From Candidatus Portnoybacteria bacterium (GTDB taxonomy: Bacteria; Patescibacteriota; Minisyncoccia; Portnoybacterales; GWB1-42-6), in NCBI GenBank assembly GCA_028688325.1, contig JAQTYI010000001.1, positions 31,088 through 95,087 on the forward strand: 64,000 nt of DNA. The letters run 5' to 3'. A model generated the notes under the pieces. That model was not told where the DNA came from and ran no database searches. It saw only the letters and a list, made by a program, of their open reading frames with translations. Shown here one piece after another: positions 5,067 to 62,695 of this stretch. The position numbers and the translations under genes were made by a program. Positions within the stretch are counted from its first letter, which is position 1, and the number at the start of each line of letters is the position of its first letter.

Positions 5067-5167
5067 AATAGCATTGCTTGCCGTCCCGAATTTATTTCGG
5101 GATCTCTGTGATTCTGAAACAAGTTCAGAATGACAAATTTTAGACAATATCAAGAAACAATCCAAAC

Positions 5168-5206
5168 TAAAAACCGTCCCGCAACTGCGGGACGGTTTTT
5201 AGTTGC
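5168..5206. terminator. Bidirectional intrinsic terminator between convergent genes
   Basis: aaaaaccgtcccgcaactgcgggacggttttt: a perfect 10-bp stem with A-run and T-run flanks. Confidence 0.7.
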
Positions 5207-5212
5207 TTTCTG

Positions 5213-6547: not shown

Positions 6548-7231
6548 TTATTTTACTTGTTCCGCTTCCGCTTCGGCGGCAGCGGCAGCAGCCGCTTTTT
6601 CTTCCTCGCCGACGACCTTAACTTCGGCTACCGCTTCAACCGGCTTGACTTCCAATTCTTCCATCTCTTTGTCGGAACGCGGCGGCGACACCAAGGCGAC
6701 CGTTTCTTCCAAGTCGGCCAGAATCTTAACGCTGCCAGACAGCGCCAAATCCTTGATGTGAATTTTATCCTCGAATGTCGCCAGCGAAGAAATATCAACT
6801 TTGATTTCCTTGGGCAAGTCCTGCGGCAGCGCTTCAACTTCAACTTCCTGCATGGCGCGGACTAAAACGCCGCCGTCCGCCTTCACCGCCGGCGATTCGC
6901 CGATAAACACGAAAGGAACCTTGGCTTTCATCTTTTCATCCATTTTCACCTCAAAAAAATCCGCGTGTATCACCTGGCCGTTCAAAATATCTCGTTCAAG
7001 ATCGTGGATAAAAACATTGCGCTTTTTGCCGTCCACAGACAGGGACAAAAGAGTGGTTTCGCCGGCTTCCTTGAAAATGCCTTCAAAATCCTTGGCATTA
7101 ACCGTAATAGATATCGGTTTTTTCCCGTGGCCGTATAAAACAGCCGGAATAAATCCGGTTTTTCTCAAAGCGCTCACTTTTTTGCCAAGGATAATCCTTG
7201 GGTCGGCTTTTAGTTCCAACATGAAATTCAA
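6548..7231 (-). CDS. rplY: 50S ribosomal protein L25/general stress protein Ctc
   Basis: N-terminal L25 fold motifs (RKTGFIPAVLYGHGK..ISI) and an acidic/Ala-rich C-terminal tail typical of the Ctc form. Confidence 0.85.
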   Translation of the reverse strand: MNFMLELKADPRIILGKKVSALRKTGFIPAVLYGHGKKPISITVNAKDFEGIFKEAGETTLLSLSVDGKKRNVFIHDLERDILNGQVIHADFFEVKMDEKMKAKVPFVFIGESPAVKADGGVLVRAMQEVEVEALPQDLPKEIKVDISSLATFEDKIHIKDLALSGSVKILADLEETVALVSPPRSDKEMEELEVKPVEAVAEVKVVGEEEKAAAAAAAEAEAEQVK

Positions 7232-7328
7232 TTAACAATTAACAATTAACAATGTATCACAATCTTGGGGTAAAAACAAGTACCGCTTTTAAAAAGCGGC
7301 CTTATTGCTTATTACCGGCTGTTTGCCG

Positions 7329-8769: not shown

Positions 8770-8797
8770 AAAAAATTTAATAGTAAAATTGTATTTT

Positions 8798-8990
8798 CAA
8801 GCCGCCCATAGCGAAAAAATAATCAGAAAATCGAGATGAGCGAGTCGTTTAAAATCGCGTGCTATGGTGGGGCCCCAAGCGTCAGCTTGGGGCGTTGCGG
8901 ATAGCGATTTTAGATGAGCGAATCCGATTTTCTTTATTTTTTACGCTCGGGCGCGGTCTTTTGGCTACTTTTCTGCTGACAGAAAAGTAG
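8798..8990. repeat. About 200-bp structured intergenic repeat family, copy 1
   Basis: Shares ccgcccatagcgaaaa..aatcgagatgagcgag..cgtttaaaatcgc..ggggccccaagcgtcagcttggggcg..gcgattttagatgagcgaatccgatttt..ctacttttctgNNNNcagaaaagtag with the copies at 17907, 42311 and 49781, and more distantly with the copy at 62121. Confidence 0.75.
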
Positions 8991-9000
8991 CAAGATGATT

Positions 9001-17906: not shown

Positions 17907-18136
17907 CCGCGCATACGAAAAACTTTAAGACAAAATCGAGATGAGCGAGGCGTTTAAAATCGCGTGCTGTGGCGGGGCCCCAAGCGTCAGCTTGGGGCGT
18001 TGTGCATAGCGATTTTAGATGAGCGAATCCGATTTTGTTAAAGTTTTATCGCCGCACGGGAACTCTTTTGCTACTTTTCTGGTTACAGAAAAGTAGATTA
18101 AATTATATTAACCTGGATTCCCGCTTTCGCGGGAAT
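17907..18136. repeat. About 200-bp structured intergenic repeat family, copy 2
   Basis: See copy 1. This copy adds a terminal hairpin attcccgc-tttc-gcgggaat. Confidence 0.75.
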
Positions 18137-18150
18137 GACAGCCGGAGATA

Positions 18151-21524: not shown

Positions 21525-21560
21525 ATGTTTTACTTTCTTAATTTAAAATAATTATTCGTA

Positions 21561-22433
21561 TTATGCTTTACCGGCCGAACCGAACATCCTGATCTTTTCC
21601 GCCACCACTTTTTTAACCTCCTCAAAACTGTGCTCCAAAATCTTATACGGCGTGGTTTCGTCGGGTTTTTCCGCCAATTCCTTATCCAATCCGGCTTTAT
21701 AGGCCAAGCGAAGTTCCGTGTTGATGTTGACTTTCGCGATTCCCATCTCTATCGCCTTTTTAACATCTTCAGCTGGAATGCCGGAACCCCCGTGCAAAAC
21801 TAAAAACGCCTTATCGCCAATAGCTTCTTTAATCTCCGCCAGGCGCTTCAAGTGCAGTTTTTCTTCGCCCGCCGCGAAAACGCCATGCGCGTTACCGATA
21901 ACCACGGCCAAGGAGTCCACGCCTGTTCTCTCAATAAAATCCAACGCCTGTTCCGGGCTAGTCAGATCACTTTCTTTAATTTCCAGTTTTTCCTTATGCA
22001 AAGATGAGGCGCCCCGCAGATAACCTAGCTCCCCCTCCACGATAATTTCCCGGTCAAAAGTTTTTTCCACCTGCCGGATGTATTTTACGACTTCATTCGT
22101 CTGCGCCAAGTTCTTCTCATAGGGCAAAGAAGAGCCGTCAAAATGCACGGCGTTGTAGCCCGCGGCCACGACTTTTTTTATTATCTCCAGGCTCTTGCCA
22201 TGGTCCAGATTCAAAATTATCGGCAATTTGGTCGCCTCGCGCCAGGCCTCAACCAAAGCAGCGGCTTCGCGCATACCGATAAAACCCGCCTCCCCCTCGG
22301 AAGTTGAAACGATTATCGGCGATTTCAATTCTTGCGCCGCGGCCACAATGGCCTTTAAAATTTCCGCGGTGGAAAAATTAAAGGAACCCACGGCGTATTT
22401 TCCTTGTTGGGCTTTTTTTAGAATTTCTTTCAT
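21561..22433 (-). CDS. fba: Class II fructose-bisphosphate aldolase
   Basis: Zn-binding LNLDHG, VLHGGSG and the class II FBA/tagatose-bisphosphate aldolase family fold. Confidence 0.85.
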   Translation of the reverse strand: MKEILKKAQQGKYAVGSFNFSTAEILKAIVAAAQELKSPIIVSTSEGEAGFIGMREAAALVEAWREATKLPIILNLDHGKSLEIIKKVVAAGYNAVHFDGSSLPYEKNLAQTNEVVKYIRQVEKTFDREIIVEGELGYLRGASSLHKEKLEIKESDLTSPEQALDFIERTGVDSLAVVIGNAHGVFAAGEEKLHLKRLAEIKEAIGDKAFLVLHGGSGIPAEDVKKAIEMGIAKVNINTELRLAYKAGLDKELAEKPDETTPYKILEHSFEEVKKVVAEKIRMFGSAGKA

Positions 22434-22437
22434 ATTT

Positions 22438-22900
22438 TAACTACTAAATACTAATTTTTACGAATATACTAAAAATTATTTAATATTCAAAACTCTTTTA
22501 AATTTAACTCCAGTTTTTGAGAAGTGAGCAATAATTCCCAGCATCAAACCCTTGGCTTTTAAATAAGAATACAGCTGGCTAATATCTTTTTTAGAAAAAT
22601 AATCCCTGACTTTAATTTCTAAAACTATTTTGTCGTCGATCAAAAAATCGAAAAAATACTTTCCCACTATGCTCCCGCGATAGTTAATTTTTACCGGCAA
22701 TTGCTCAATAAAAACGATCCTTTCTCGTTCCAAATCTTTAGCTACTGCTCTTTGATAAAAAACTTCTTTGTGGTTGCTGCCAATATTGCTCCATACATTA
22801 AACAAAATACCCACAATCTTATAAGATAACTCCGGATATACCAAATCATCCCTTATCTTCACCATTTTGTATATTAGTACAAATTAGTATTTAGTAGTTA
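22438..22900. mobile_element. 463-bp cassette bounded by perfect 20-bp inverted repeats (TAACTACTAAATACTAATTT) that carries the GxxExxY gene
   Basis: The left TIR at 22438-22457 is the reverse complement of 22881-22900. The cassette fills the gap exactly between the fba start codon (22433) and the stop codon of the upstream 422-aa gene (22898-22900). Confidence 0.65.
22476..22865 (-). CDS. GxxExxY-family protein (PD-(D/E)XK-like)
   Basis: YPELSYKIVGILFNVW..G.....EVFYQRAVAKDLE..KINYRG matches the GxxExxY family pattern; 129 aa. Confidence 0.7.
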   Translation of the reverse strand: MVKIRDDLVYPELSYKIVGILFNVWSNIGSNHKEVFYQRAVAKDLERERIVFIEQLPVKINYRGSIVGKYFFDFLIDDKIVLEIKVRDYFSKKDISQLYSYLKAKGLMLGIIAHFSKTGVKFKRVLNIK

Positions 22901-24166
22901 CAACTCGATGAATCCTTTCTCAATATTGTTCAAAACTAATTCCCTCAACTTTTCCTCCCCCATAAATTCCATGAATATCTTATTCCACAGCGATTCCTGC
23001 TGGTGATAAAGATATTTTCCAAGACCCCCGTGGGTCAAGGCCACGATATTGTCTATCAGATCAAAGCTCACGATTTCTTCGCCTTTTTTACCGGCCAGGA
23101 ATATATCGCCGGCAAAATCATCGGCGCCACGCCAAAATTCCATATCGGCTTGCGGATATTTTTCCGCCAAAAGATCCATTTCTTTTTCCGCCCGCAGCCA
23201 ATGTAAATTCTCCGTGTTCACATGGGGCTCAAAAAGCCGCGGATCCTGAGGATCCGCCTTGGCCAAATATCTTTGGATAACTCTCCAAGATATTTTTCCG
23301 TCCTGCAAAGCGGCGCCCGATGCTTTGCCGGAAAGTAAATCCACAATGTTTTTTCCAAAGTCCGGCCGCTTTGCGTATCGCCTGAACAACTCGCAATAAA
23401 AATCGATTTCGTGAATATAGTGCAAGACCAAACTGAATGTTTCCGCGATCCGGCCGGGAGCGTAGACATGGACGCCGCCGTTCCCGTTAGAGGCCTCGGG
23501 GATGATAAAAACAAGGCCAAGCTCTTTCAAGTGGCTGATGTGATGAAGCTTTTTGCCGACAAATTTAGCGCCGATCTTCGCCCATTTTTCAGAAAGCACG
23601 CGCACTTTTATTTCCCTTTCTTCAAAATTATCCGCGGTTAAGTCATTATACGGCCTGAAAAATGTTTCGTTCAGCCAACGCTCGTTTTCCACAAAGCGCA
23701 AGGCGGCAAAAACTTCATACAAATTCTCCTTGGCCAGCATTTCTTGCACGCCGGCGTACCCTAAATCGCCCAAAATATTTTTGGGCGGATTCAAGAACAA
23801 AAAATCGCGCAGTTTTTCTTCTTGCAAAAAAAATCCGTTTTTTACGCCAGAAATTTCCTTTATCTTGCCTATCATGACTCCGCAGCCGTCCTGCTTGCTC
23901 AGATCCGGCTCGCCCAAAAATTCATAGAATGCCTTGTCGGCTTCTTTGGTTTTTTCAAAAAGCTTCGCCTGCACCAATTGAGCATCGGCTTTTTCTTCCG
24001 CTATGCCGAGTTCCTTTAATTTTTGCTTGACTATAGCTTCGTTCTCCTTGCAAATTTTTTCGGCCACGCCGGTTGTGCCGGTCAATTTTTCCATTTTGGC
24101 GAAAATCTCGGCCAAAACGCTTTCGGGCGAACGCAATAATGCGGCGATTTTTTGGACTGGTGTCAT
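22898..24166 (-). CDS. Hypothetical protein (422 aa), no family recognised
   Basis: Long uninterrupted ORF between the mobile cassette and the sugar-kinase gene. Confidence 0.5.
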   Translation of the reverse strand: MTPVQKIAALLRSPESVLAEIFAKMEKLTGTTGVAEKICKENEAIVKQKLKELGIAEEKADAQLVQAKLFEKTKEADKAFYEFLGEPDLSKQDGCGVMIGKIKEISGVKNGFFLQEEKLRDFLFLNPPKNILGDLGYAGVQEMLAKENLYEVFAALRFVENERWLNETFFRPYNDLTADNFEEREIKVRVLSEKWAKIGAKFVGKKLHHISHLKELGLVFIIPEASNGNGGVHVYAPGRIAETFSLVLHYIHEIDFYCELFRRYAKRPDFGKNIVDLLSGKASGAALQDGKISWRVIQRYLAKADPQDPRLFEPHVNTENLHWLRAEKEMDLLAEKYPQADMEFWRGADDFAGDIFLAGKKGEEIVSFDLIDNIVALTHGGLGKYLYHQQESLWNKIFMEFMGEEKLRELVLNNIEKGFIEL

Positions 24167-25169: not shown

Positions 25170-25212
25170 AAATTATGATCTGTCATTCTGGCGAAAGCCA
25201 GAATCCAGGTTT

Positions 25213-25470
25213 TTATAATTCGTAATACAAATCGCGCCATTGAGGATTTATTTTTTCAATCAATTCTATTTTCCATTTTCTTTTCCAATTTTTCAGTTGT
25301 TTTTCTCTATTTAAAGCGCTGTATGCATCATTGATATAATCATAATAAACAAGCGAATGTAACTTGTATTTCTTAGTAAAGCCCATCGACCGCATTACTT
25401 TTATGTTCCCAAATCCTTTTTTTCAAATTAGAAGTAACTCTTATATATAAAGTACCGTTTCACCCGCCAG
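25213..25470 (-). pseudogene. Degraded GIY-YIG nuclease-family gene (multiple frameshifts)
   Basis: The track ORF (MGFTKKYKLHSLVYYDY..REKQLKNWKRKWKIELI) matches the C-terminal half of small GIY-YIG proteins. Upstream, YYVYILAGG (the GIY-YIG N-terminus) and LKKRIWEHKSN lie in two other frames separated by stops. Confidence 0.5.
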
Positions 25471-25535
25471 CAAGAATATAAACATAATAATTCTTCAAAT
25501 TCATTCCTGGATGCCGGGTCAAGCCCGGCATGATA

Positions 25536-28538: not shown

Positions 28539-28544
28539 AAATTC

Positions 28545-28640
28545 CTAATGTCTAATGAAATACCCAATGCCAAATGTCCAAATGTCCCGCAGAGCGGGAC
28601 TGAATTAGAAATTAGTAATTAGAAATTTGACATTTTTATT
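28545..28640. repeat. AT-rich ATGACA/TGTCAT-rich palindromic intergenic element
   Basis: Member of a family also present at 30965-31135, 31860-31990, 32805-32890, 36535-36715 and 62600-62695. All are tandem aaatgacNaa units arranged as long imperfect palindromes at gene boundaries. Confidence 0.5.
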
Positions 28641-29076: not shown

Positions 29077-29084
29077 AATTAATC

Positions 29085-29172
29085 GTCATCCTGAGCACAT
29101 TCGCTCCGCTCAGTATAAACTCCGCGAAGGATCTATAATAGATTCTTCGGGCTACGCCCTCAGAATGACAAA
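29085..29172. repeat. Palindromic element of the gtcatcctga...cagaatgac family (intergenic copy)
   Basis: cgtcatcctgagcac..gaaggatctataatagattcttcggg..cctcagaatgacaa. An in-frame homologue lies at 43253-43356 inside the GT39 gene. Confidence 0.6.
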
Positions 29173-29177
29173 TTATT

Positions 29178-30964: not shown

Positions 30965-31135
30965 AATATAAAATTAATTAACTATTAAAAGATATACGAA
31001 AAACGATAAAATGTCAAATGACGAATGACTAATGACAAATCAATTTCAAAGCCCAAAATCCAAATTTTGACATTGGACATTAGGATTTTATTTGTCATTT
31101 GTCATTGGAAATTAGTCATTTAAGACAAGTTCCTT
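30965..31135. repeat. AT-rich ATGACA/TGTCAT palindromic intergenic element
   Basis: aaatgtcaaatgacgaatgactaatgacaaatc ... gacattggacattagg ... tttgtcatttgtcattgg. Confidence 0.5.
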
Positions 31136-31162: not shown

Positions 31163-31912
31163 CTACTTCCCGCTCGCCCCGTTCCACCCCTTGGCCGCCA
31201 GCGCGTTTTCAGCCGCTTTTTGCTGGGCATCCTGCTTGGAAACCCCCTCGCCCTCAGCTACCAGCTCATCATTCAAATATACCCCTATCTTAAAATTCTT
31301 TGCGTGATCCGGCCCCCACTCTTTCAAGACCTCGTAGCTCGGCGTGATGCCCGCCCGCTCCTGCGCCTCTTCCTGGAACATGCTTTTGGCGTCGCGATAC
31401 GCTCCTTCTTTCAGAATTTCCGGCAGATGAGCCAAGATATTTTTTTCTATGAACTCGCCCGCCACCTCGATTCCCTGGTCCAGGAATATCGCGCCGATAA
31501 GCGCTTCCATCGTGTTGGCTAAAATATACTGGCGCGCCCGGCCGATATCTTTGGATTCGCCGCGGCTTAACATCAAAAAATCATTAAGACCGATGGCTTC
31601 GGCGATTTCCGCTAATTTTTTAGCGTTGACCAAAGCGGCGCGCCAATTGGTCAGCTCGCCTTCGGGATTGGGATAGGTCGCGTAGAGATGCTTGGTGACG
31701 ACCAATTCCAGCACCGCGTCGCCCAAAAATTCCAACCGCTCGTTATGGGGCAACTGGAAATCAGGATTTTCATTCAGAAAAGACCGGTGCACGAACGCCT
31801 GCTGCAGCAGATCCTTATTTTTAAAAGATACGCCTATCTTATTCTCGAGTTTAAATAGCTCCTTCATTACAAAATCCAAATGACAAAATCCAAATGACCA
31901 ATCAATGACCAA
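31163..31912 (-). CDS. rnc: Ribonuclease III
   Basis: ERLEFLGDAVLELVV RNase III signature and a C-terminal dsRBD. Confidence 0.9.
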   Translation of the reverse strand: MVIDWSFGFCHLDFVMKELFKLENKIGVSFKNKDLLQQAFVHRSFLNENPDFQLPHNERLEFLGDAVLELVVTKHLYATYPNPEGELTNWRAALVNAKKLAEIAEAIGLNDFLMLSRGESKDIGRARQYILANTMEALIGAIFLDQGIEVAGEFIEKNILAHLPEILKEGAYRDAKSMFQEEAQERAGITPSYEVLKEWGPDHAKNFKIGVYLNDELVAEGEGVSKQDAQQKAAENALAAKGWNGASGK

Positions 31913-31990
31913 GCCCTAAATCCCAAAAATTCATTTTGACATTAGGATTTGGGATTTTATTTGTCATTGGGACTTTGACATTTGACATTA
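31860..31990. repeat. AT-rich ATGACA/TGTCAT palindromic intergenic element
   Basis: aaatccaaatgacaaaatccaaatgacc..cctaaatcccaaa..tttgggatttt..gtcattggg..gacatttgacatt. Confidence 0.5.
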
Positions 31991-32432: not shown

Positions 32433-32447
32433 ATTTTCCTTATGTCA

Positions 32448-32535
32448 TTCCGAGTATAGCGAGGAATCTCCCGCGAATGCGGGGCCGCCCATTCGGGCGA
32501 GATCCCTCGTCGCTACGCTCCTCGGGATGACAATC
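32448..32535. repeat. About 90-bp imperfect palindrome of the gtcattcc...gggatgac family
   Basis: gtcattccgagtatagcgaggaatctcccgcgaatgcgggg..gagatccctcgtcgctacgctcctcgggatgacaa. Confidence 0.55.
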
Positions 32536-32798: not shown

Positions 32799-32891
32799 AT
32801 CTTTAAAATTTCTAAATCCTAATTTCTAATTTCTAAACCAATCCTCGCTCCGCGAGGACTTCATTAGACATTAGATATTAGAAATTTGTCA

Positions 32892-34970
32892 TTATTTAGT
32901 GAACGGTATCAGCCCCATATTGTCCAAATAGCTTCTGGCGCTTTTGTTGTTCGGCTCAATTTCCAAAACTTTTTGCCAGGCGCGGCGCGCTCCGGAAAAA
33001 TCCCCCTCCTGATAATAAATCCTGCCCAGCGGCAGATAAGCATCAATATATCCGTCGTCCAATTCTATCGCCTTTTTGAAATAGGCCTTGCTTCGTTCGG
33101 TATCGTTTTTTGCCTCGCAGAGCATCCCGTTCGCCAGCCAAACCTGCTTGGCGCCGGGATTTTGTTCCAGCGCCCGGTCAAATGCCTGAATGGCCAAATC
33201 GTTAAGGCCCGCTGTTTGGAAAAACGAACCCAAACGCACTGAATCAAAAAAATCATTGTCGACCAAGTATTTGTAAATATACCGGCCTAAATTTTCTTGA
33301 TTCAAGGCGTATTTGAGGATCAAGGGTTTATTGGCTTGATTGTCCCGGGCCCAGATAACGATTGCCGAGTCGAGATAAACCATCTTCCAGCCGCTCCTTT
33401 GCACCATCCGGCGAATAAATGATTGCCCCCAGGGAGTCGCGTCGGTATGGGCGAAAAAAACAAAATTTATCCCATAGGTATCATCTGCGTATTTTTGCCA
33501 GGCCGCATCGCCTGTCTGCATCGGAATATATACCGATTGAAAAAAATCCGCCGGATACGCTTCGGGCCGGCCGTCAATAAAAACTTTGTAATCGGGCCAG
33601 GCCTTCCAAATAAGAAAACCGCCGATATCAAAATTATTGAACATGGGGCCGGAAACCCTATTCTGTTTTAAAAAATCAATCGCCGCATCCGCTCCCGCCG
33701 GGATGCCCAAGCCGAAGCGCTCGCTTTCCATTGATTTTAAGTAAAAACGGTTGGAAACAACCGAGTAAATACTCCCAATTAAAATAACAAAAATAAGGGC
33801 AATGGTCAAGAGATGCGCGACGCCTCTCAGCCGGATTTTCTCCCATCTGGCAAAATATCTGGCATATTGCTCGCGAGCACAAGCAAAATTAGCCGATAAA
33901 ACCGGGATAGCCGCCAGCCCCAACAACGGAAAATTGCGTATAGCCGACCAAGAAGTTATAACGAAAAATACCGATAAAAACAAATAAAACGGCCTCATCT
34001 TGCGCCAATTGAACAAAAAAGAGACAGCCAGCGCCGCCAGCGTTATTTTAAAAAAAATGATCGCGGGATTGAACATCAGCTTCTCCAAAAAGAACGGCGA
34101 CTGATTTTCCGCGATGGAATAGCCGTAGTTGTTAAAAATATAAAAGGGATAAAGTGCGCCGCGCCAAACATTGGGGTTTGCCAGCGCCGCCGCGCCGGCG
34201 AGCAACCCAAGCAAAATAACCTGCGCCATATAACGGTCCAATTTTTTCTGCCGCGCCAAAAGATACACGGCGCGGCGGCGCATCCAGAGCCGATCCAGAA
34301 AAAAGAAAAATATCAGCGCAAGGCCGTAGATAAAAGAAATATGCAAATTGACCCAAAGCAGCTCCAGCGGGATAAGTAGCCAAAAAGACCGGGAGATTTT
34401 TTCTTTATTTTTGTCCAGGATAAAAAGAAACAGAGCGAAAAGCAAAAATCCGAAGGTCTCGGGCCTGATATCCGTGCGCTCCAAAATCAATCCCGCGCCG
34501 AGAATTGCCGCCAAAATGGAAAAAATTAAATATTTTTTTCGCCAAGCCAGCTTCCAGACCAGCGCAAACGCCGCCAAAATGATTAAAGCGTTAAAAATTA
34601 TGAGGCCCTTAATGCCAATGGCCAAAGACAGCAAATAATAAATGACTTCGCTCAGCCAGTGATGATTGACGAATGGAAAGTTGGGATTGGTATAAGAAAA
34701 AAAGTTGGTATCCGGGATCTGCTTAGTATGCCAAATTAATTCGCCCAATTTCAAATGCCGGCCCAAATCCTGATTCACGGCCGAAGCGCTGTGAATTAAA
34801 AAAACCGCCAATGTCATCAAGACCAGCTCGACTAATATCCACTTCGAAACGACCGGCCAGCCGAGATCAAACTGGCGGCGATCGACGCTTTTTTTATTTT
34901 TTGGCGCCTCGACCGGCTGCGAAAATCTTTGATCGTCGGGGATCAATTGAAACATATTTTTATTATACAT
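32892..34970 (-). CDS. Large polytopic membrane protein with C-terminal TPR repeats (putative glycosyltransferase/oligosaccharyl-transferase-like)
   Basis: More than 10 hydrophobic helices, then TPR-like repeats (AIQAFDRALEQNP, AYFKKAIELDDGYIDAY, ARRAWQKVLEIEPNN). Confidence 0.55.
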   Translation of the reverse strand: MYNKNMFQLIPDDQRFSQPVEAPKNKKSVDRRQFDLGWPVVSKWILVELVLMTLAVFLIHSASAVNQDLGRHLKLGELIWHTKQIPDTNFFSYTNPNFPFVNHHWLSEVIYYLLSLAIGIKGLIIFNALIILAAFALVWKLAWRKKYLIFSILAAILGAGLILERTDIRPETFGFLLFALFLFILDKNKEKISRSFWLLIPLELLWVNLHISFIYGLALIFFFFLDRLWMRRRAVYLLARQKKLDRYMAQVILLGLLAGAAALANPNVWRGALYPFYIFNNYGYSIAENQSPFFLEKLMFNPAIIFFKITLAALAVSFLFNWRKMRPFYLFLSVFFVITSWSAIRNFPLLGLAAIPVLSANFACAREQYARYFARWEKIRLRGVAHLLTIALIFVILIGSIYSVVSNRFYLKSMESERFGLGIPAGADAAIDFLKQNRVSGPMFNNFDIGGFLIWKAWPDYKVFIDGRPEAYPADFFQSVYIPMQTGDAAWQKYADDTYGINFVFFAHTDATPWGQSFIRRMVQRSGWKMVYLDSAIVIWARDNQANKPLILKYALNQENLGRYIYKYLVDNDFFDSVRLGSFFQTAGLNDLAIQAFDRALEQNPGAKQVWLANGMLCEAKNDTERSKAYFKKAIELDDGYIDAYLPLGRIYYQEGDFSGARRAWQKVLEIEPNNKSARSYLDNMGLIPFTK

Positions 34971-36533: not shown

Positions 36534-36534
36534 A

Positions 36535-36715
36535 ATGCCAAATGACGAATGCCTAATGACTAATCAATACCAGCTTCGCTGGTATCCCGCAGTTGCGGGA
36601 TGATTGCCGAGGCAATCAAAGCTCAAAATCCAAATTTGACATTGAGGCATTGGGATTTTATTTGTCATTAGTCATTGGAAATTTGTCATTTCATAAAATT
36701 TTACCAAATCACATC
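36535..36715. repeat. AT-rich ATGACA/TGTCAT palindromic intergenic element with three central mini-hairpins
   Basis: ccaaatgacgaatgcctaatgactaatcaa..taccagcttcgctggta..tcccgcagttgcggga..gattgccgaggcaatc..gacattgaggcattggg..tttgtcattagtcattgg. Confidence 0.5.
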
Positions 36716-42278: not shown

Positions 42279-42310
42279 AGTTCCTCGCGCATATAAAGAA
42301 CCTTATCATT

Positions 42311-42587
42311 CAAGCCGCCCATAGCGAAAATGGGGGTTGTTCTGCCGCGCATACGAAAAACTTTAAGACAAAATCGAGATGAGCGAGGCGTTTAAAATCG
42401 CGTGCTGTGGCGGGGCCCCAAGCGTCAGCTTGGGGCGTTGTGCATAGCGATTTTAGATGAGCGAATCCGATTTTGTTAAAGTTTTATCGCCGCGCGGGAA
42501 CTCTTTTGCTACTTTTCTGGTTACAGAAAAGTAGATTAAATTATATTAACCTGGATTCCCGCCCCGCATTTGATGCGGGGCGGGAAT
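42311..42587. repeat. About 200-bp structured intergenic repeat family, copy 3 (extended)
   Basis: Nearly identical to copy 2. The terminal hairpin is lengthened to attcccgccccgca-tttga-tgcggggcgggaat, with pairing preserved. Confidence 0.75.
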
Positions 42588-42600
42588 AACAATATATACG

Positions 42601-44696: not shown

Positions 44697-46022
44697 ATGA
44701 ACTATTTTACCATTACCTATGGCTGTCAAATGAATAGGTCCGACAGCGAGAAAATCACGACCCGCCTCCGTAAAATGGGTCACCAACCGGCCAAAAACGC
44801 GGCTCTGGCCGAATTAATAGTGGTTAATCTTTGTTCGGTCAGAGAAAGCGCCGTCCATCGCGCGCTGGACCAGATACATAAACTATCTGATGGTCGAAAA
44901 AAAATAATCGCGGCCGGATGCATTCTGCCGCAAGACAGAAAAAAGCTGGCTGCCAAAAATATCGCTATCTGGCACCCGGATGATTATTTTTCGCAAGTCC
45001 CCCTGCGGGAAAGCGAATTCAGCGTGTTCGTGCCGATAATGACCGGCTGCAACAACTTCTGTTCTTATTGCGCCGTGCCCTTCACGCGGGGCAGAGAAAA
45101 ATCACGCCCCGCCAAAGAAATAATCGCCGAAATAAAAAAACTGCTCAAAAACGGAGCTAAAGAGATAATTTTGCTTGGGCAGAATGTGAATTCTTATAAA
45201 GATACCGCCGAAACATTTAATCCCCCCACCCCCCTTTTGCGTAAGGGGGGCGAAAAACCCGTATCTGCCTCCCTTGTAAAAAGGGGGGCGGGGGGATTAA
45301 AAAATACCTCGATCGACTTTCCGGCCCTATTAATAATAATCAACGCCCTCTCCGGCAACTTCCGCCTTTCCTTCATCACTTCCCATCCCAAAGATATGTC
45401 GGATAAGCTGATTGAAACGATGGCCAAGTGTAAAAAAATTATTCCTTATTTGCATTTGCCCGTTCAAAGCGGCGACGACAAGATCTTGCGGGCTATGAAC
45501 AGACATTATAGTGTCGCGCATTATAAAAATTTGATAAAAAAGATCCACTCCTCCTTTGCCCGCTGGCGGGCTTCGGAGGACAAGCCGCCCTTTTCTCCCA
45601 TAGCCATCTCCACCGACATAATTGTTGGCTTTCCCGGCGAAACTGCTAAACAATTTCAAAACACGCTAAAACTGATAAAGAATGTTAATTTTGATATGAT
45701 ATATTTTGCCCGGTATTCTCCGCGATCCGGCACCGCGGCCGCCAAATTAAAAGACAATGTTTCGCCGAAAGAAAAAAGACGCCGGGCGCAAGTGATAAAT
45801 TCCCTGCTAAAAAAACAGGCACTGGAGTTGAATAAAAAATATATCGGGCAAGAAGTCGAGATACTGGTGGAAAAAGTCGACGCGAACTGGGCCCGGGGAA
45901 AAACTTCAACTAACAAGGAAGTGATGTTGCCGCGAAAAAAATTGAAGATAGGACAATTTACAACGGTAAAAATAACCGAAGCCGCCGCTTGGCATTTGAA
46001 GGGATTAGAAAAGCCGCGCTAA
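44697..46022 (+). CDS. miaB: MiaB/RimO-family radical-SAM methylthiotransferase (likely tRNA i6A37 methylthiotransferase) with an in-frame insert of about 25 aa
   Basis: N-terminal MTTase domain (YGCQMN), radical-SAM CNNFCSYC, TRAM domain. The insert TFNPPTPLLRKGGEKPVSASLVKRGAGGLK is encoded by the poly-G/C palindrome at 45218-45300. Confidence 0.85.
   Translation: MNYFTITYGCQMNRSDSEKITTRLRKMGHQPAKNAALAELIVVNLCSVRESAVHRALDQIHKLSDGRKKIIAAGCILPQDRKKLAAKNIAIWHPDDYFSQVPLRESEFSVFVPIMTGCNNFCSYCAVPFTRGREKSRPAKEIIAEIKKLLKNGAKEIILLGQNVNSYKDTAETFNPPTPLLRKGGEKPVSASLVKRGAGGLKNTSIDFPALLIIINALSGNFRLSFITSHPKDMSDKLIETMAKCKKIIPYLHLPVQSGDDKILRAMNRHYSVAHYKNLIKKIHSSFARWRASEDKPPFSPIAISTDIIVGFPGETAKQFQNTLKLIKNVNFDMIYFARYSPRSGTAAAKLKDNVSPKEKRRRAQVINSLLKKQALELNKKYIGQEVEILVEKVDANWARGKTSTNKEVMLPRKKLKIGQFTTVKITEAAAWHLKGLEKPR
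45218..45300. repeat. Poly-G/poly-C palindromic element inserted in frame in miaB
   Basis: aatccccccaccccccttttgcgtaaggggggcgaaaaacccgtatctgcctcccttgtaaaaaggggggcggggggatt. Confidence 0.7.
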
Positions 46023-46204: not shown

Positions 46205-47224
46205 ATGTCAAAGCCAACTTATCCCCAAAAACCGATAATCGTCGTGGTCGGCCCCACGGCCTCGGGAAAATCCGACTTAGCAGTTAAGCTCGCTAAAAAA
46301 TTCAACGGCGAGGTTATTTCGGCCGATTCGCGCCAGGTTTACAAAGGCATGGATATCGGCACGGGAAAGGTGCCTCTCTCAAGTCCCCCCCTTGCGCAAA
46401 GGGGGGCCAGGGGGGTTAAACCTGCTGGCTACTACGGCGGCATTGCACATTATTTAATCGATGTGGCCTCGCCAAGCCGCCGATTTACCGCCGGGCAATA
46501 CAAAAAACTGGGGCAAGCAGCAATAAAAAAGATACAAGACAAAAACAAGATTCCCATCGTTTGCGGCGGCACCGGATTTTATATCCGCATGCTTGTGGAC
46601 GATCTGCAAGTTCCGGCCGTCAAGCCGGACTTAAAACTGCGCGCCAAATTGGAGAAAAAGACAACACAAGAACTATTCGCCGAGCTTAAAAAACTGGATC
46701 CGCGCCGCGCCGCGGAAATCGACCGCGCCAATCCCCGTCGGCTCGTTAGGGCGCTGGAGATAATTTATCTAACTGGCAAACCCGTGCCGCCGCCCCCCCC
46801 CTCTGTCATTCCGGGCTTGACCCGGAATCCAGAACCTGGATCCCGCATCAAGTGCGGGATGACAAATAATAATGTATTGTTCCTCGGCATCCGCCTCCCC
46901 CGACCCAAACTCGCCAAACGCATCAAAGCGCGCCTGGCTAAACGCCTTAAACAAGGAATGCTCGCCGAAGTCAAAAAACTCCGCGCGCAGGGCGTTTCCT
47001 GGAAACGACTGGACAGCTTCGGCCTGGAGTACCGCTGGCTGGCGAAATTTTTGCAAAACAAAATCTCCTATGAGGAGATGGTTGAGCGCCTGCAAAAAGA
47101 TATAGAACATTATGCCAAACGGCAGATGACCTGGTTTGGCCGCGATGAACGGATTCGCTGGATAAAAAATTCTGCGCAAGCGGAAAAATTTATGGCCAAA
47201 TTCTTGAAAAAATCAGCTCTCTAG
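46205..47224 (+). CDS. miaA: tRNA dimethylallyltransferase with two in-frame repeat-derived inserts
   Basis: P-loop GPTASGKS, and SADSRQVYKGMDIGTGK. Insert 1 at about 46384-46420 is LSSPPLAQRGARGVKPA (poly-G/C family). Insert 2 at about 46790-46866 is PPPPPSVIPGLTRNPEPGSRIKCGMTNN (gtcattcc...gggatgac family). Confidence 0.85.
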   Translation: MSKPTYPQKPIIVVVGPTASGKSDLAVKLAKKFNGEVISADSRQVYKGMDIGTGKVPLSSPPLAQRGARGVKPAGYYGGIAHYLIDVASPSRRFTAGQYKKLGQAAIKKIQDKNKIPIVCGGTGFYIRMLVDDLQVPAVKPDLKLRAKLEKKTTQELFAELKKLDPRRAAEIDRANPRRLVRALEIIYLTGKPVPPPPPSVIPGLTRNPEPGSRIKCGMTNNNVLFLGIRLPRPKLAKRIKARLAKRLKQGMLAEVKKLRAQGVSWKRLDSFGLEYRWLAKFLQNKISYEEMVERLQKDIEHYAKRQMTWFGRDERIRWIKNSAQAEKFMAKFLKKSAL

Positions 47225-48772
47225 TTTTTTCTTCAACATCCCAACCACCACCTGAGGATTGGCCTTGCCCTTCGTGGCGGCCATGACTTTGCCGACAAGA
47301 AACATCAGCGAGTTTTGCTTGCCTTTTTTAAAGTCCGCCACCGGGCCGGGGTTGGCGCTTAAAACTTCTTCGATTGCCAGATTCAGCTCTTCCTCATCGC
47401 TCACCTGGCCCAAGTCCTTTTCGGCAATGACATGCGAGGGATCCGCTCCCGTGGCGAACATTTCCGCCAGCACCGTTTGCGCGCCGGAAGATGAAACCAC
47501 GCCTTGCGCTGTCAGTTTGATGAACTCGGCGAATTTGGCCGGTGTGATTTTTACGGCGGAAAAATCATTGCCCGACTGATAAACCAGCCGCTGGAGCTCC
47601 GTAATCAAATAGTTCACCGCCAGTTTTGCCGATTTGGCATAGTCAATTTTCGGCTCGGCCATTTTAGCCAAAGCCGCCAATTCGCTGGCCGTTTTTTCAA
47701 AATAATTTCCCAGATCGAAATTAACGACTAAAACATCGATATCTCCGGCCGACAAACCGTATTCTTTGGCGAATCTCTCCCTTTTTTGCGCCGGCAATTC
47801 CGGAAGCTCTTTTTTCAATTCCTCGCTCAAGATCACCAACCCCTTTAGCGGCGGCAGATCCGGCTCGGGAAAATAGCGGTAATCATGCGCCTCTTCTTTC
47901 GCGCGCTGACTGAATGTCTCGCCTGTTGCATCATCCCAACCGCGCGTTTCCTGAATTATCTTTTCGCCCGCTTCCAACGCCTCGGTTTGCCTTTTTATCT
48001 CATAGTCAATCGCCCGCTCAACTACTCGAAAAGAGTTTAGATTTTTTATCTCTACCTTCGTCCCTAATTTCTTTAACCCTCCTGCTTCCCCCTTTACAAG
48101 GGGGGCAGATACGGGTTTATCTCCCCCCTTACGCAAAAGGGGGGTTGGGGGGTTAAAGTCCACGGGCCGTATACTAATATTGACTTCGCACCTCATCTGC
48201 CCTCGCTCCATATCCGCATCGGAAATTCCCAAATATCTAAAAATTAATTGCAACTCCTGGCAAAATTTGCGTGCCTGAGCGCCGGATTTTATATCGGGCT
48301 CTGTTACCAATTCCATCAACGGCACGCCGGCGCGGTTTAAATCCACAAGCGAATAGTCAGCTCCCTTGGGATGCGTTAATTTGCCGGTGTCCTCCTCAAG
48401 ATGTATCCGGGTTATCCTGACGCGGGCTTTTTCATCGTTTTCTCCGATATCCAAATACCCGCCTTCAATTAGCGGCTGGTCGTATTGTGAGATCTGGTAA
48501 CCCTTAGGCAAATCGGGGTAAAAGTAGTTCTTGCGGTCGAACTTGGATGTGTCGCCGATCTGGCCTCCCAGGGCCAATCCCGCCTTTAGAACCATATGCA
48601 CCGCTTCCTCGTTGATGACAGGCAAGGTTCCGGGCTGGCCGGAGCAGACGGGGCAGATATCAACATTGGGCTCGGTTTCAAGGCCCAGCCCGTTGGGACA
48701 AGAACAAAACATCTTGCTCTTGGTTTTCAGCTCGGCGTGGATTTCCAGGCCTATAGTCGGTTCGTATTTCAT
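47213..48772 (-). CDS. gatB: Asp-tRNA(Asn)/Glu-tRNA(Gln) amidotransferase subunit B with an in-frame insert of about 25 aa
   Basis: Starts MKYEPTIGLEIHAEL and has GatB/YqeY domains. The insert DFNPPTPLLRKGGDKPVSAPLVKGEAGGLK is encoded by the element at 48073-48156. The track start (MNITEFLLPGM) lies inside MITE 1b. Confidence 0.9.
   Translation of the reverse strand: MKYEPTIGLEIHAELKTKSKMFCSCPNGLGLETEPNVDICPVCSGQPGTLPVINEEAVHMVLKAGLALGGQIGDTSKFDRKNYFYPDLPKGYQISQYDQPLIEGGYLDIGENDEKARVRITRIHLEEDTGKLTHPKGADYSLVDLNRAGVPLMELVTEPDIKSGAQARKFCQELQLIFRYLGISDADMERGQMRCEVNISIRPVDFNPPTPLLRKGGDKPVSAPLVKGEAGGLKKLGTKVEIKNLNSFRVVERAIDYEIKRQTEALEAGEKIIQETRGWDDATGETFSQRAKEEAHDYRYFPEPDLPPLKGLVILSEELKKELPELPAQKRERFAKEYGLSAGDIDVLVVNFDLGNYFEKTASELAALAKMAEPKIDYAKSAKLAVNYLITELQRLVYQSGNDFSAVKITPAKFAEFIKLTAQGVVSSSGAQTVLAEMFATGADPSHVIAEKDLGQVSDEEELNLAIEEVLSANPGPVADFKKGKQNSLMFLVGKVMAATKGKANPQVVVGMLKKKLES
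48073..48156. repeat. Poly-G/poly-C palindromic element inserted in frame in gatB
   Basis: The reverse complement is nearly identical to the miaB copy (ttaaccccccaaccccccttttgcgtaaggggggagataaacccgtatctgccccccttgtaaagggggaagcaggagggttaa). Confidence 0.7.
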
Positions 48773-48903
48773 ACCAGGTAGTAGAAATTCGGTTATATTC
48801 ATAAATCCATACGGATTTTTAAATTGCCGAATTCTATAGTTTTATCAAATTTTGCCAATTAGTGATAGTTAACTAAACTGCCGAATTTTCACTACCTGGC
48901 ATA
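48770..48903. mobile_element. MITE copy 1b with 20-bp TIRs, flush against the gatB start codon
   Basis: cataCCAGGTAGTAGAAATT ... AATTTTCACTACCTGGcat; the interior is about 80% identical to copy 1a; ATA flanks. Confidence 0.65.
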
Positions 48904-49780: not shown

Positions 49781-49973
49781 CCCCACCCATAGCGAAAAAA
49801 TAATCAGAAAATCGAGGCGAGTTGAGCGTCTAAATTTGCGTGCTGTGGTGGGGCCCCGACCGTCAGGTCGGGGCGTTGCGGATAGCAAATTTAGCGAGAC
49901 GAGCCAGATTTTCTTTATTTTTTACGCTCGGGCGCAGGTCTTTTGGCTACTTTTCTGCCTGCCAGAAAAGTAG
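49781..49973. repeat. About 200-bp structured intergenic repeat family, copy 4
   Basis: The central hairpin is ccccgacc-gtca-ggtcgggg here versus ccccaagc-gtca-gcttgggg in copies 1-3: compensatory changes with pairing preserved. The distal hairpin is ctacttttctg-cctgc-cagaaaagtag. Confidence 0.75.
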
Positions 49974-49985
49974 CGAGGAAAAAAA

Positions 49986-54490: not shown

Positions 54491-54605
54491 AAAGATAGTG
54501 ATTGGCTGCTTAAAAAAGACAAATTATTGTCATGCCGAACTTGTTTCGGCATCTCAGCCATGGATCCTGAAACAAATTCAGGATGATAAAAATATAAAAA
54601 ATGCT

Positions 54606-56277: not shown

Positions 56278-56291
56278 AATAAAAATTTTTG

Positions 56292-56477
56292 CTAAATAAT
56301 GAACTTATTCATCAACAGTTGAAAGACGAAATCCGCCAAGCCCAAAAACAAAGCCGCGCCCAGTGAAATTCCAACCACCGTCAAAGTATAGTTGTAGGTT
56401 TCCTGGCGCGTGGGCCAGGTGACTTTTTTAAGCTCAGCTTTCACCTCGCTGAAGAATGTGATGATGCGATTGAACAT
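56292..56477 (-). CDS. secE: Preprotein translocase subunit SecE
   Basis: 61 aa with a single TM segment, KKVTWPTRQE, and the conserved secE-nusG-rplK order. Confidence 0.8.
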   Translation of the reverse strand: MFNRIITFFSEVKAELKKVTWPTRQETYNYTLTVVGISLGAALFLGLADFVFQLLMNKFII

Positions 56478-56534
56478 ATTCGTATTTTTTTGTTTTTTAA
56501 AACCCCCTCGCGGGGGTTAAAGTATCTATGCTGT

Positions 56535-56563
56535 AGAATACTCTCCGCCGCTTTATCTGTCAA
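56535..56563 (-). promoter_or_regulatory. Sigma-70-type promoter for secE-nusG-rplK (TTGACA, 17-nt spacer, TATTCT); the 5'-UTR carries a poly-G/C hairpin (56497-56522)
   Basis: Read on the minus strand. The UTR hairpin aacccccgcgagggggtt belongs to the poly-G/C repeat family. Confidence 0.45.
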
Positions 56564-56588
56564 TAGTTTATAAACAACAACATAATAT

Positions 56589-56700
56589 GTCATTCCCGCC
56601 CCACATCAAGTGGGGGTAAACTCCAGCGGGAATCCAGGGCCTGGATCCCGGGTCCCGCCTTCGCAATGCTTCGGCGAGGCAAGCAAGCCCGGGATGACAA
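56589..56700. repeat. Composite palindromic repeat (gtcattcccgc..gcgggaatcc + agggcctggatcccggg..cccgggatgacaa), intergenic
   Basis: Same modules as the in-frame copies in rnhB (35530-35577) and miaA (46804-46866). Confidence 0.6.
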
Positions 56701-56712
56701 AATTATATATAT

Positions 56713-60545: not shown

Positions 60546-60596
60546 ACTTACAATTATTATATAAAATTTCTACTTTATTTGCTACTCGCCCCATCT

Positions 60597-60627
60597 TGTC
60601 ATCCCGGCTCAAGGCCGGGATGACAAA
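60597..60627. repeat. Short perfect palindrome ttgtcatcccggcc-tcaa-ggccgggatgacaa (gtcat family)
   Basis: Read from the sequence. Confidence 0.55.
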
Positions 60628-60655
60628 AAAAGAAAAAATAGATGCTATTCGCAGA

Positions 60656-62113: not shown

Positions 62114-62120
62114 GTTTGCA

Positions 62121-62310
62121 AACCGCCCATACGAAAAATTTTGTTATAAATTCGCGATGAGCCGAGCGTCTAAAATCGCCGGCGGGACGAGAAAGCGAAA
62201 CGAGTTGTTCGCGGTGATTTTAGCGAGGCGAATTCGAATTTGTCAAAATTTTATCGTCAGGCGGCGGTTTTTCCGCCGCTTTGGCGTTTACCCCGTTCTA
62301 CGGGGCCGGC
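62121..62310. repeat. About 200-bp structured intergenic repeat family, copy 5 (divergent)
   Basis: Shares the 5' box aaccgcccatacgaaaa..gcgatgagc..gcgtctaaaatcgc and a two-hairpin 3' architecture (gcggcgg-ttttt-ccgccgc; ccccg-ttcta-cgggg), but with different stem sequences. Confidence 0.55.
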
Positions 62311-62329
62311 AAAAAAGCGGCAAAAGATT

Positions 62330-62611: not shown

Positions 62612-62695
62612 ATAAACCCGACACTAATCCACGAATTGGCACGAATGACACTAATTGATTCGTGCCATTCGTGTGTCATTTGTGTATTGGTGTCG
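62600..62695. repeat. AT-rich palindromic intergenic element (ggcacgaatgacac / gtgtcattcgtgcc)
   Basis: Overlapping inverted repeats between the gatC start and the ligA stop. Confidence 0.45.

Follow-up and report, generated by a model that had tools for sequence, protein, structure and literature searches.

This analysis concerns a small gene cassette in a 64-kb stretch of DNA (the window, meaning the whole stretch analysed) from a genome of Candidatus Portnoybacteria, within the candidate phyla radiation (CPR). The cassette carries a gene of the GxxExxY nuclease family and lies in a series of genes all on the minus strand, in the order PfkB-family kinase, a 422-aa protein, the cassette, class II fructose-bisphosphate aldolase (fba) and 2-hydroxyacid dehydrogenase. 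Its G+C content is 29.6%, compared with 46-49% in the flanking genes, and the lowest-G+C bin of the entire window (22401-22800) falls in the cassette region. The 20-mer TAACTACTAAATACTAATTT is present on the plus strand at 22438-22457 and as its perfect reverse complement at 22881-22900, with no further match in the window when up to three mismatches are allowed, and no match at this tolerance in any of 100 dinucleotide-preserving shuffles. The full inverted repeat extends to 39-nt arms (22435-22473 and 22865-22903) that are complementary at 35 of 39 positions, and the sole open reading frame (ORF) of at least 60 aa lying wholly between the arms is that of a 129-aa protein (22476-22865, minus strand). 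Thus, the description in the first-pass annotation of a perfect 20-bp inverted repeat enclosing a GxxExxY gene alone stands: both copies match at 20/20 positions and are unique in the window, and the one ORF inside scores above the cutoffs of both TIGR04256 and PF13366.

The same annotation had defined a 463-bp unit bounded by terminal inverted repeats (TIRs), with the last repeat bases forming the stop codon of the 422-aa gene. The cassette does fill the stop-to-start gap between its host genes, and the TAA stop at 22898-22900 does overlap the 20-mer. However, the outer TAA/TTA of the 20-mer is the host stop codon plus a coincidental match outside the element; relatives have TGA or TAG at that position, and the termini conserved in the family, C22441 and G22897, give 457 bp instead. 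Likewise, inverted ends are present, but they are not simple TIRs, since each is an array of four hexamers. The features of the locus are as follows:

22441..22897, minus strand: whole cassette, 457 bp, termini CTAC...GTAG (boundaries from 55 homologous elements)
22866..22897, minus strand: 5' arm, in gene orientation C TACTAA A TACTAA TTTG TACTAA TA TACAAA (four-hexamer grammar)
22441..22472, plus strand: 3' arm, in plus-strand reading C TACTAA A TACTAA TTTT TACGAA TA TACTAA (mirror of the 5' arm)
22476..22865, minus strand: GxxExxY/PDDEXK_3 gene, 129 aa (hidden Markov model matches)
22898..24166, minus strand: upstream host gene, conserved uncharacterised 422-aa protein (stop codon abuts the cassette)
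21561..22433, minus strand: downstream host gene, class II fructose-bisphosphate aldolase, fba (ATG at 22431-22433, 7 nt past the cassette end)
21540..22960, no strand: tract of ~1.4 kb comprising the 3'-terminal ~60 nt of the 422-aa gene, the cassette and the complete fba (53-85% identity to the related locus L127)

The 5' arm directly precedes the ATG of the nuclease gene (22865-22863), and the 3' arm starts 3 nt past its stop codon (22476-22478). The arms, 32-39 nt long, follow the consensus C-TACTAA-A-TACTAA-N4-TAC[T/G]AA-TA-TAC[A/T]AA, and the occurrence of four hexamer copies per end at fixed spacing means that the ends are not an arbitrary palindrome. Inverted ends with conserved termini, a feature of insertion sequences (ISs) and DNA transposons, are therefore present. 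Rfam returned no family match within the cassette, and the nuclease gene has no Shine-Dalgarno sequence and scores at background level in a scan for promoters and terminators.

The encoded protein, which has an identical counterpart in a metagenome-assembled genome of Candidatus Portnoybacteria, matches TIGR04256 (GxxExxY) with 88.7 bits (cutoff 35) and PF13366 (PDDEXK_3) with 88.6 bits (cutoff 22); no other Pfam or NCBIfam match was found in the cassette ORF, nor any recognised transposase class (DDE, HUH, Ser or Tyr). Residues E34, Y37, D73, E83 and K85 are intact in the window protein and invariant across 81 relatives; E34 and Y37 belong to the GxxExxY motif, whose first G is replaced by N31 in the window's subclade. 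Comparison with a 90%-identical copy (L001) gave a nonsynonymous-to-synonymous substitution ratio (dN/dS) of 0.03. By these measures the gene is intact and under strong purifying selection, and the nuclease looks active, because the catalytic residues are invariant and dN/dS is 0.03. An AlphaFold model with a pLDDT of 92.8 has a minimal PD-(D/E)XK core (alpha-beta-beta-beta-alpha-beta). The nearest solved structures in a fold search were Cas4 SSO0001, lambda exonuclease, the tRNA-splicing endonuclease EndA, Hjc and I-Bth0305I, at TM-scores of only 0.4-0.57, while a sequence search of the PDB found no related structure (best E ~ 0.1); judging from the model, these fold neighbours are generic PD-(D/E)XK proteins. 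A profile search (E <= 0.001) recovered 11,980 representatives of 50%-identity clusters as the GxxExxY family. Tandem two-domain GxxExxY proteins of ~260-280 aa recur among these representatives (P0259, P0267, P0285, P0290, P0294 and others), which hints at a dimeric working unit for the single-domain nuclease. The sole functional statement found for GxxExxY/PDDEXK_3 proteins is "unknown, multiple transfers" (PMC3424549). The openly accessible literature, to which our reading was confined, likewise lists the function of GxxExxY as unknown and does not describe the cassette architecture. A phage collection held no homologue of the nuclease, and a plasmid collection held just ~30%-identical genes from other phyla.

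A metagenome scan supplied 80 further loci, and removal of duplicates left 55 distinct elements, each a homologous unit of arms and ORF. Element length is 442-546 bp (mostly 450-485 bp), and the termini are (G)CTAC...GTAG(C): a C precedes the first TAC in 93-96% of element ends, and the composition is flank-like beyond position -2. Homologues at 62-68% identity lie between rpsG and fusA with arms homologous to those of the window, and an example of arm homology across the S7/EF-G, PilT/PilC and 422-aa/fba slots is CTACGAAATACGAA... The neighbouring proteins cluster into 18 families upstream and 20 downstream, in 28 pairings, several of which are resolved on one side and may be duplicates; the 55 elements occupy roughly 20-28 different gene junctions. 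Among the slots, whose gene names were assigned by reading the sequences, are S7/EF-G, 422-aa/fba, PilT-like/PilC-like, x/LigA, HtrA-like/ClpB, RecA/x, RpoC/x, PheS/x and ValS/x. A same-strand stop codon lies 0-9 nt from the left end of the element upstream in 44/55 cases, and a same-strand start codon 1-18 nt from the right end downstream in 47/55; the remaining cases are contig ends or slightly larger gaps rather than opposing genes, and no element is oriented against its neighbours wherever this can be resolved. The G+C content of the element is below that of its flanks in 52/52 comparisons (28.7% vs 42.0%). The upstream stop codon is TAG in 22/44 resolvable loci, its final G often doubling as the G of GCTAC; either TAG is preferred as a target or the end of the element supplies the stop codon. 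Taken together, the sequences indicate that arms and ORF form one unit, present in many slots.

Two loci depart from this layout. In L168 (1054-1919) and L172 (241-1278) a host-type gene, coding for a pilin-like membrane protein in the former and a SET-domain protein in the latter, separates the GxxExxY ORF from the outer 5' arm, which is found 400-550 nt upstream. The arrangement represents either cargo capture or a separate solo arm.

The state of the host junction was followed in 80 loci encoding relatives of the 422-aa protein, taken from species-representative genomes, in which the gap to fba was measured. In most of the Parcubacteria loci (~70) the genes share an ATGA overlap or have just a few bases between them. 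L196, whose 422-aa protein is 79% identical to that of the window, shows the intact overlap GAGTT[ATGA]GAGAAATT, free of any insert, and L010, L016 and L020 (60-65% identity in the 422-aa protein) are empty as well; the cognate empty-site sequences for this slot are GAGTTATGAGAGAA and GAGTTATGAGAGAAATT. The fully syntenic L193 (79%) instead holds an unrelated, gene-less insert of 170 nt at the slot, and L191 (85%) holds a GxxExxY cassette just 67% identical to that of the window. These comparisons show that the overlapping or abutting junction is the ancestral state and the cassette an insertion. The first-pass annotation had proposed a mobile unit, with relatives lacking it and further copies of the repeat as its expected traces. 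Both traces were found, the empty sites in relatives of this slot and the further copies as arm-and-ORF units in ~20-28 junctions of other genomes and metagenomes, with none further in the window.

The slot has also seen replacement of one cassette by another. The closest homologues of the nuclease (90, 83, 77 and 70% identity) all occupy the same 422-aa/fba slot, with arms conserved. L127 is nearly identical to the window in the PfkB kinase (98%), the 422-aa protein (96%) and the dehydrogenase (96%), yet its cassette is just 66% and its fba 80% identical, with sharp breakpoints: nucleotide identity is 95-100% from 24338 down to ~22960, drops to 53-85% over the end of the 422-aa gene (~60 nt), the cassette and the whole of fba, and returns to 88-97% from ~21540. 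Conversely, L001 is 90% identical in the cassette and 86% in fba but just 66% in the 422-aa protein. The difference between the window and L127 is an allelic swap between a TACTAA-type and a TACGAA-type cassette in which fba was co-replaced. Presence or absence at a fixed site with co-conversion of the flanks, as known for homing genes, is therefore found here, in the empty L196 and in the tract swapped in L127. Such a pattern is expected from double-strand-break repair and homing, and ordinary recombination is also compatible with it. Occupation of the slot is old and common to related lineages, and its history is one of recombinational turnover, not of a recent jump. Inside the otherwise 95-100% identical 422-aa gene, a second short mosaic patch (23019-23138) has 80% identity to L127.

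The 422-aa protein itself (22898-24166) is highly conserved, with many invariant residues; its gene is ATGA-coupled to fba across Parcubacteria and stands beside the PfkB kinase gene, and it has no Pfam or NCBIfam match. We regard it as a candidate unrecognised sugar-phosphate pathway enzyme.

A major question is whether the ends of the cassette serve as DNA sites or as an RNA stem. The four-hexamer grammar is present on both arms in 50/55 elements, with TACNNA as the hexamer, four per end, and fixed spacings of 1 nt, 4-6 nt and 2 nt. All eight hexamers are identical in 21 of these 50 elements and at least seven in 34. The words fall into four classes (TACGAA, TACTAA, TACAAA and TACGGA), and within an element all eight shift together, changes on both arms having first been seen as TACTAA in the window, TACGAA in L007 and TACGGA in L014. 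Complementarity between the arms is 96% at hexamer positions but just 50% in the spacers between the second and third hexamers, which have a T bias in the 5' arm (61% T on the top strand, vs 47% in the 3' arm). Where the hexamers of an element are mixed, the match between arms is 0.60 at the same position vs 0.58 at different positions, and the transition mismatches comprise 11 sense-wobble and 11 antisense-wobble cases, with no strand bias. Selection therefore holds each hexamer near an element-specific word and does not keep arm positions paired; because the spacers are uncomplementary, positions are not mirrored and RNA-wobble bias is absent, the pattern suggests iterated double-stranded DNA binding sites (predicted) rather than a stem. 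The change from T to G on both arms between the window and L007 had been considered as compensatory covariation, a candidate rejected on the same three statistics.

The hexamer classes map onto the protein sequences. In a neighbour-joining tree of the 55 proteins, the TACAAA class is monophyletic, TACGGA and TACAGA group together, the TACTAA clade of the window is distinct and TACGAA makes up the rest, whereas slots are interleaved on the tree, with S7/EF-G and 422-aa/fba each taken by several lineages. An independent TACTAA element, L189, has S30, K43, R47 and D88 in common with the window's clade. This link between protein and hexamer is suggestive, not proof.

The arms also occur without the gene. 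In L098 and L126 a 75-85-nt hairpin in the S12/S7 junction, which neighbours the junction of the full element, consists of both arms with GCTAC...GTAGC termini and no ORF, its hexamer class being that of the resident full element (TACGAA in L098, TACAAA in L126). An ORF-less hairpin follows a full element in tandem in L132 and L149, and a solo arm is kept in the 422-aa/fba slot of L064. Lack of coding capacity, the mark of a miniature inverted-repeat transposable element (MITE), is thus seen in the L098 and L126 hairpins and not in the window copy, whose 129-aa ORF is intact. Further afield, a Bacteroides finegoldii GxxExxY gene (27% identity; L199) lies between radA and the next gene in the order stop, arm, ORF, arm, 5 nt, ATG, with 30-nt arms that are 90% complementary and contain CACAGAGGA-like words; in Treponema a copy of the gene is flanked by a 16-nt repeat, and after a Gemmatirosa copy comes a hairpin of CACGCGGAT words. 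Iterated-word repeats recur beside distant GxxExxY genes but do not accompany all of them.

From this body of evidence, we think it probable that this region represents one member of a family of minimal mobile cassettes in which the nuclease recognises its own iterated ends and its cleavage drives their spread. Since the promoterless gene lies in the stop-to-start gap between co-transcribed host genes and points the same way, read-through is its most likely mode of expression. The nuclease, probably dimeric or in a higher oligomeric state, would recognise the hexamer arrays at both ends as double-stranded DNA sites, much as transposon ends carry iterated binding sites, and its cleavage would drive spread: within a slot by homologous recombination with co-conversion of flanking DNA, in the manner of homing, and to new slots by a rarer, end-dependent event. 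The family is large, apparently undescribed, and colonises gene-to-gene junctions, and the window copy would be an intact, long-resident member of its TACTAA subfamily with a local history that includes the recombinational swap. Whether GxxExxY cassettes amount to a new class of autonomous prokaryotic mobile element, the smallest at ~460 bp, is a bolder proposal, to which we give a substantial but less than even chance. Under it, the nuclease would be the sole mobility protein encoded by the element, its specificity would co-evolve with the four-hexamer arrays, and the ORF-less iterated-word hairpins of CPR and other intergenic junctions would be non-autonomous derivatives.

Several observations weigh against a self-mobilising nuclease cassette. 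The binding and cutting of the hexamers by GxxExxY proteins is a prediction from sequence. PD-(D/E)XK enzymes hydrolyse DNA and, to our knowledge, have no strand-transfer activity, and therefore a 129-aa nuclease acting as the sole transposition protein would be unprecedented. Flanking direct repeats are at the level of the cross-slot null, so that no target-site duplication was detected; the sole long ones are TTATGA at the 422-aa/fba slot, and TTATGA...TTATGA was rejected as a duplication at this slot because the pattern does not generalise across slots. No two elements in different slots are >90% identical (maximum ~81%), so no recent jump was caught, and the window has a single cassette copy with no further arms. 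The swap of ~1.4 kb could be ordinary recombination that merely included the cassette, and physical linkage alone would make hexamer class follow the protein tree. That all eight hexamers change together is the non-trivial signal, but homogenisation of repeats could also produce it. Finally, the Fusobacteria and Persicobacter copies, two of five distant members, have no clear flanking or adjacent repeat.

Among other explanations, the one we take most seriously, while holding it unlikely, is an RNA-level device: the arms would pair in the polycistronic mRNA, forming a stem around the ORF that is cut by RNase III, as in ORF-bearing 23S rRNA intervening sequences. The hexamers would be incidental, and the stem would serve to shield the host operon or to control translation of the nuclease. 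Indeed, the minimum-free-energy fold of the transcript pairs the two arms of the window copy (z = -4.4) in a stem that would hide the start codon of the nuclease gene, the cassette is always in the co-transcribed orientation, and the window includes an rnc (RNase III) gene (31163-31912). However, the statistics across 50 elements given above (spacers 50% complementary, mirroring 0.60 vs 0.58, G-U bias absent at 11 vs 11) argue against a stem as the primary constraint, and pairing by itself leaves four copies of one word, the conserved TAC..A and the terminal C unexplained. RNA pairing can coexist with mobility of the cassette as a secondary property. A resident host gene, such as a nuclease for defence, repair or RNA processing, inherited vertically with differential loss and flanked by a local regulatory repeat, is in our judgement improbable. 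It would account for the strong purifying selection and for the synteny of the closest homologues (77-90% identity) at the same slot, but not for the arm-and-ORF unit in ~20-28 unrelated junctions with slots interleaved on the protein tree, the consistently foreign G+C content, the ancestral empty state, the cassettes swapped between near-identical genomes or the ORF-less derivatives.

We give still less credence to the idea that a generic intergenic hairpin came first and that the ORF then inserted into its loop. At least six long AT-rich hairpins of iterated heptamers do populate the intergenic regions of the window, their heptamers GACGAAT and GACTAAT resemble TACGAA and TACTAA, and ORF-less iterated-motif inserts of 100-250 nt occupy the 422-aa/fba junction in L012, L013, L018, L021, L033 and L056. 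Against this, the arms are homologous between unrelated slots with common termini and spacing, so they move with the ORF, and the generic hairpins of the window use a different word and none has CTAC termini; the arm homology across unrelated slots led us to reject this candidate. As for a chance inverted repeat around an ordinary small gene, AT-rich low-complexity intergenic DNA does inflate short repeats, but the result of 0/100 shuffles and the conservation of the repeat in every relative examined refute it to the point that we give it practically no weight, in agreement with the first-pass annotation, which had thought chance unlikely.

How, then, does the cassette compare with known systems? 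It resembles a cross between a free-standing homing endonuclease gene and a TIR transposon/MITE system, and its organisation recalls REPtrons, yet it is a member of none of these: it has no recognised transposase, target-site duplication or HUH protein, and it is not in rRNA. Intronless homing is known for the free-standing seg and mob genes of T-even phages, and PD-(D/E)XK homing enzymes include I-Ssp6803I. Like such genes, the cassette is a small lone nuclease gene between conserved genes, present or absent at the same site in close relatives, subject to allelic replacement with flanking co-conversion, and its product has a fold of the PD-(D/E)XK superfamily. Unlike them, with their single cognate site and no terminal inverted repeats, it has iterated ends that travel with it, ~20-28 junctions and ORF-less derivatives. 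A REPtron consists of a RAYT (TnpA-REP) gene flanked by inverted repetitive extragenic palindromes (REPs), with hairpins of REPs and bacterial interspersed mosaic elements (BIMEs) scattered in intergenic regions. The parallel with the cassette lies in one small gene bracketed by inverted hairpin-forming repeats and in ORF-less copies in other junctions. By contrast, RAYT is an HUH/Y1 single-strand transposase and the cassette protein a PD-(D/E)XK (PDDEXK_3) enzyme, REPs are single palindromes and the cassette ends four-fold hexamer arrays, and REPtrons are essentially immobile as a unit whereas the cassette unit is found in many slots.

With ISs and MITEs such as the Correia/NEMIS elements of Neisseria, the cassette shares small size, TIRs with conserved outermost bases, location in operon gaps, co-transcription and the pairing of autonomous with ORF-less forms; the ends of Tn7 and Mu likewise have multiple subterminal repeats of a protein site, which in the cassette are predicted. 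Occupation of multiple sites, another IS feature, is seen across genomes (~20-28 slots, empty in relatives). The difference is that the cassette has no DDE, HUH, serine or tyrosine recombinase and no detected target-site duplication. In Tn7, TnsA is a PD-(D/E)XK nuclease that needs TnsB for strand transfer, and we know of no autonomous IS as small as 457 bp. ORF-bearing 23S rRNA intervening sequences similarly enclose a small ORF in a long stem within a highly transcribed unit, but the cassette lies between protein-coding genes (the window has no rRNA genes) and the statistics argue against selection for pairing. Integron cassettes are promoterless single ORFs with an imperfect-palindrome site, co-directional insertion and minimal spacing, as is the element; they differ in forming arrays and in having one 3' attC, as opposed to repeats on both sides of the ORF, and no integrase or attI context was seen at the element.

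Other repeats and nuclease genes of the window are recorded here in their own right. The iterated-heptamer, ORF-less hairpins belong to an abundant family (28540-28635, 31009-31121, 31870-31984, 32806-32894, 36534-36691 and 62619-62695, with a solo array at 7223-7251) built from GACGAAT, GACTAAT, GACAAAT, GCCTAAT and TTCTAAT; the loop often contains a small G+C-rich hairpin, the heptamer core AC[GTA]AAT resembles the cassette hexamers, and CTAC termini are absent. An intergenic repeat family of ~200 nt has at least five copies in the 64 kb (8770-9000, ~17950-18150, 42279-42600, 49791-49985 and 62105-62329), with the layout …AAAATCGAGATGAGCGAG…GTGGGGCCCC…CTACTTTTCTG-loop-CAGAAAAGTAG and no Rfam match; apparently the same family, reversed, fills the 422-aa/fba slot of L015 (4249-4457). 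Another family of intergenic palindromes has ends like TGTCATYCYGR…YCRGRATGACA (29077-29177, 32433-32534, 54491-54605, 60546-60655, 5067-5212 and 56278-56712), exemplified at 60546-60655 by TTGTCATCCCGGCTCAAGGCCGGGATGACAAAA.

Within coding sequences, an 89-nt inverted repeat (85%) is found at 45216-45304 and 48069-48157 (also 46205-47224). The miaB-like ORF (44697-46022) and the gatB-like ORF (47213-48802) both encode ...FNPPTPLLRKGG(E/D)KPVSA(S/P)LVK...GGLK, each 89-nt copy is itself palindromic (45216-45238 and 45279-45301), and the miaA-like ORF has a similar SSPPLAQRGARGVKPAGY. These repeats look like in-frame palindromic insertions in housekeeping proteins, reminiscent of Rickettsia palindromic elements. 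The second-lowest G+C bin (0.33) corresponds to a 366-nt gap upstream of the PfkB gene (25170-25535), in which an ORF on the minus strand (25213-25395) encodes a 60-aa remnant matching the C-terminal part of the GIY-YIG nuclease domain (E = 0.005); intact GIY-YIG genes of ~86 aa lie upstream of rpsL in L099, L100, L102, L106 and L108. This suggests that a second kind of small nuclease gene may live in the operon gaps of CPR.

The window offers a testable anatomy, a nuclease gene together with two arrays of a six-base word that change in concert with the protein, and natural controls are available in the form of empty sites, ORF-less derivatives, four hexamer classes and a mapped allelic swap. 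For annotation, the case is a warning that small low-G+C genes in conserved operons of uncultured bacteria may be mobile cassettes, not operon members. If these cassettes were indeed a new class of mobile element, a family of ~12,000 clusters at 50% identity, now annotated as unknown, would acquire a function. If the nuclease reads its own ends, it would provide a minimal system for studying how DNA-binding specificity evolves together with its target sites, it might yield compact sequence-specific nucleases, and it would be a new route by which the streamlined CPR genomes, with their overlapping genes, would gain intergenic DNA.

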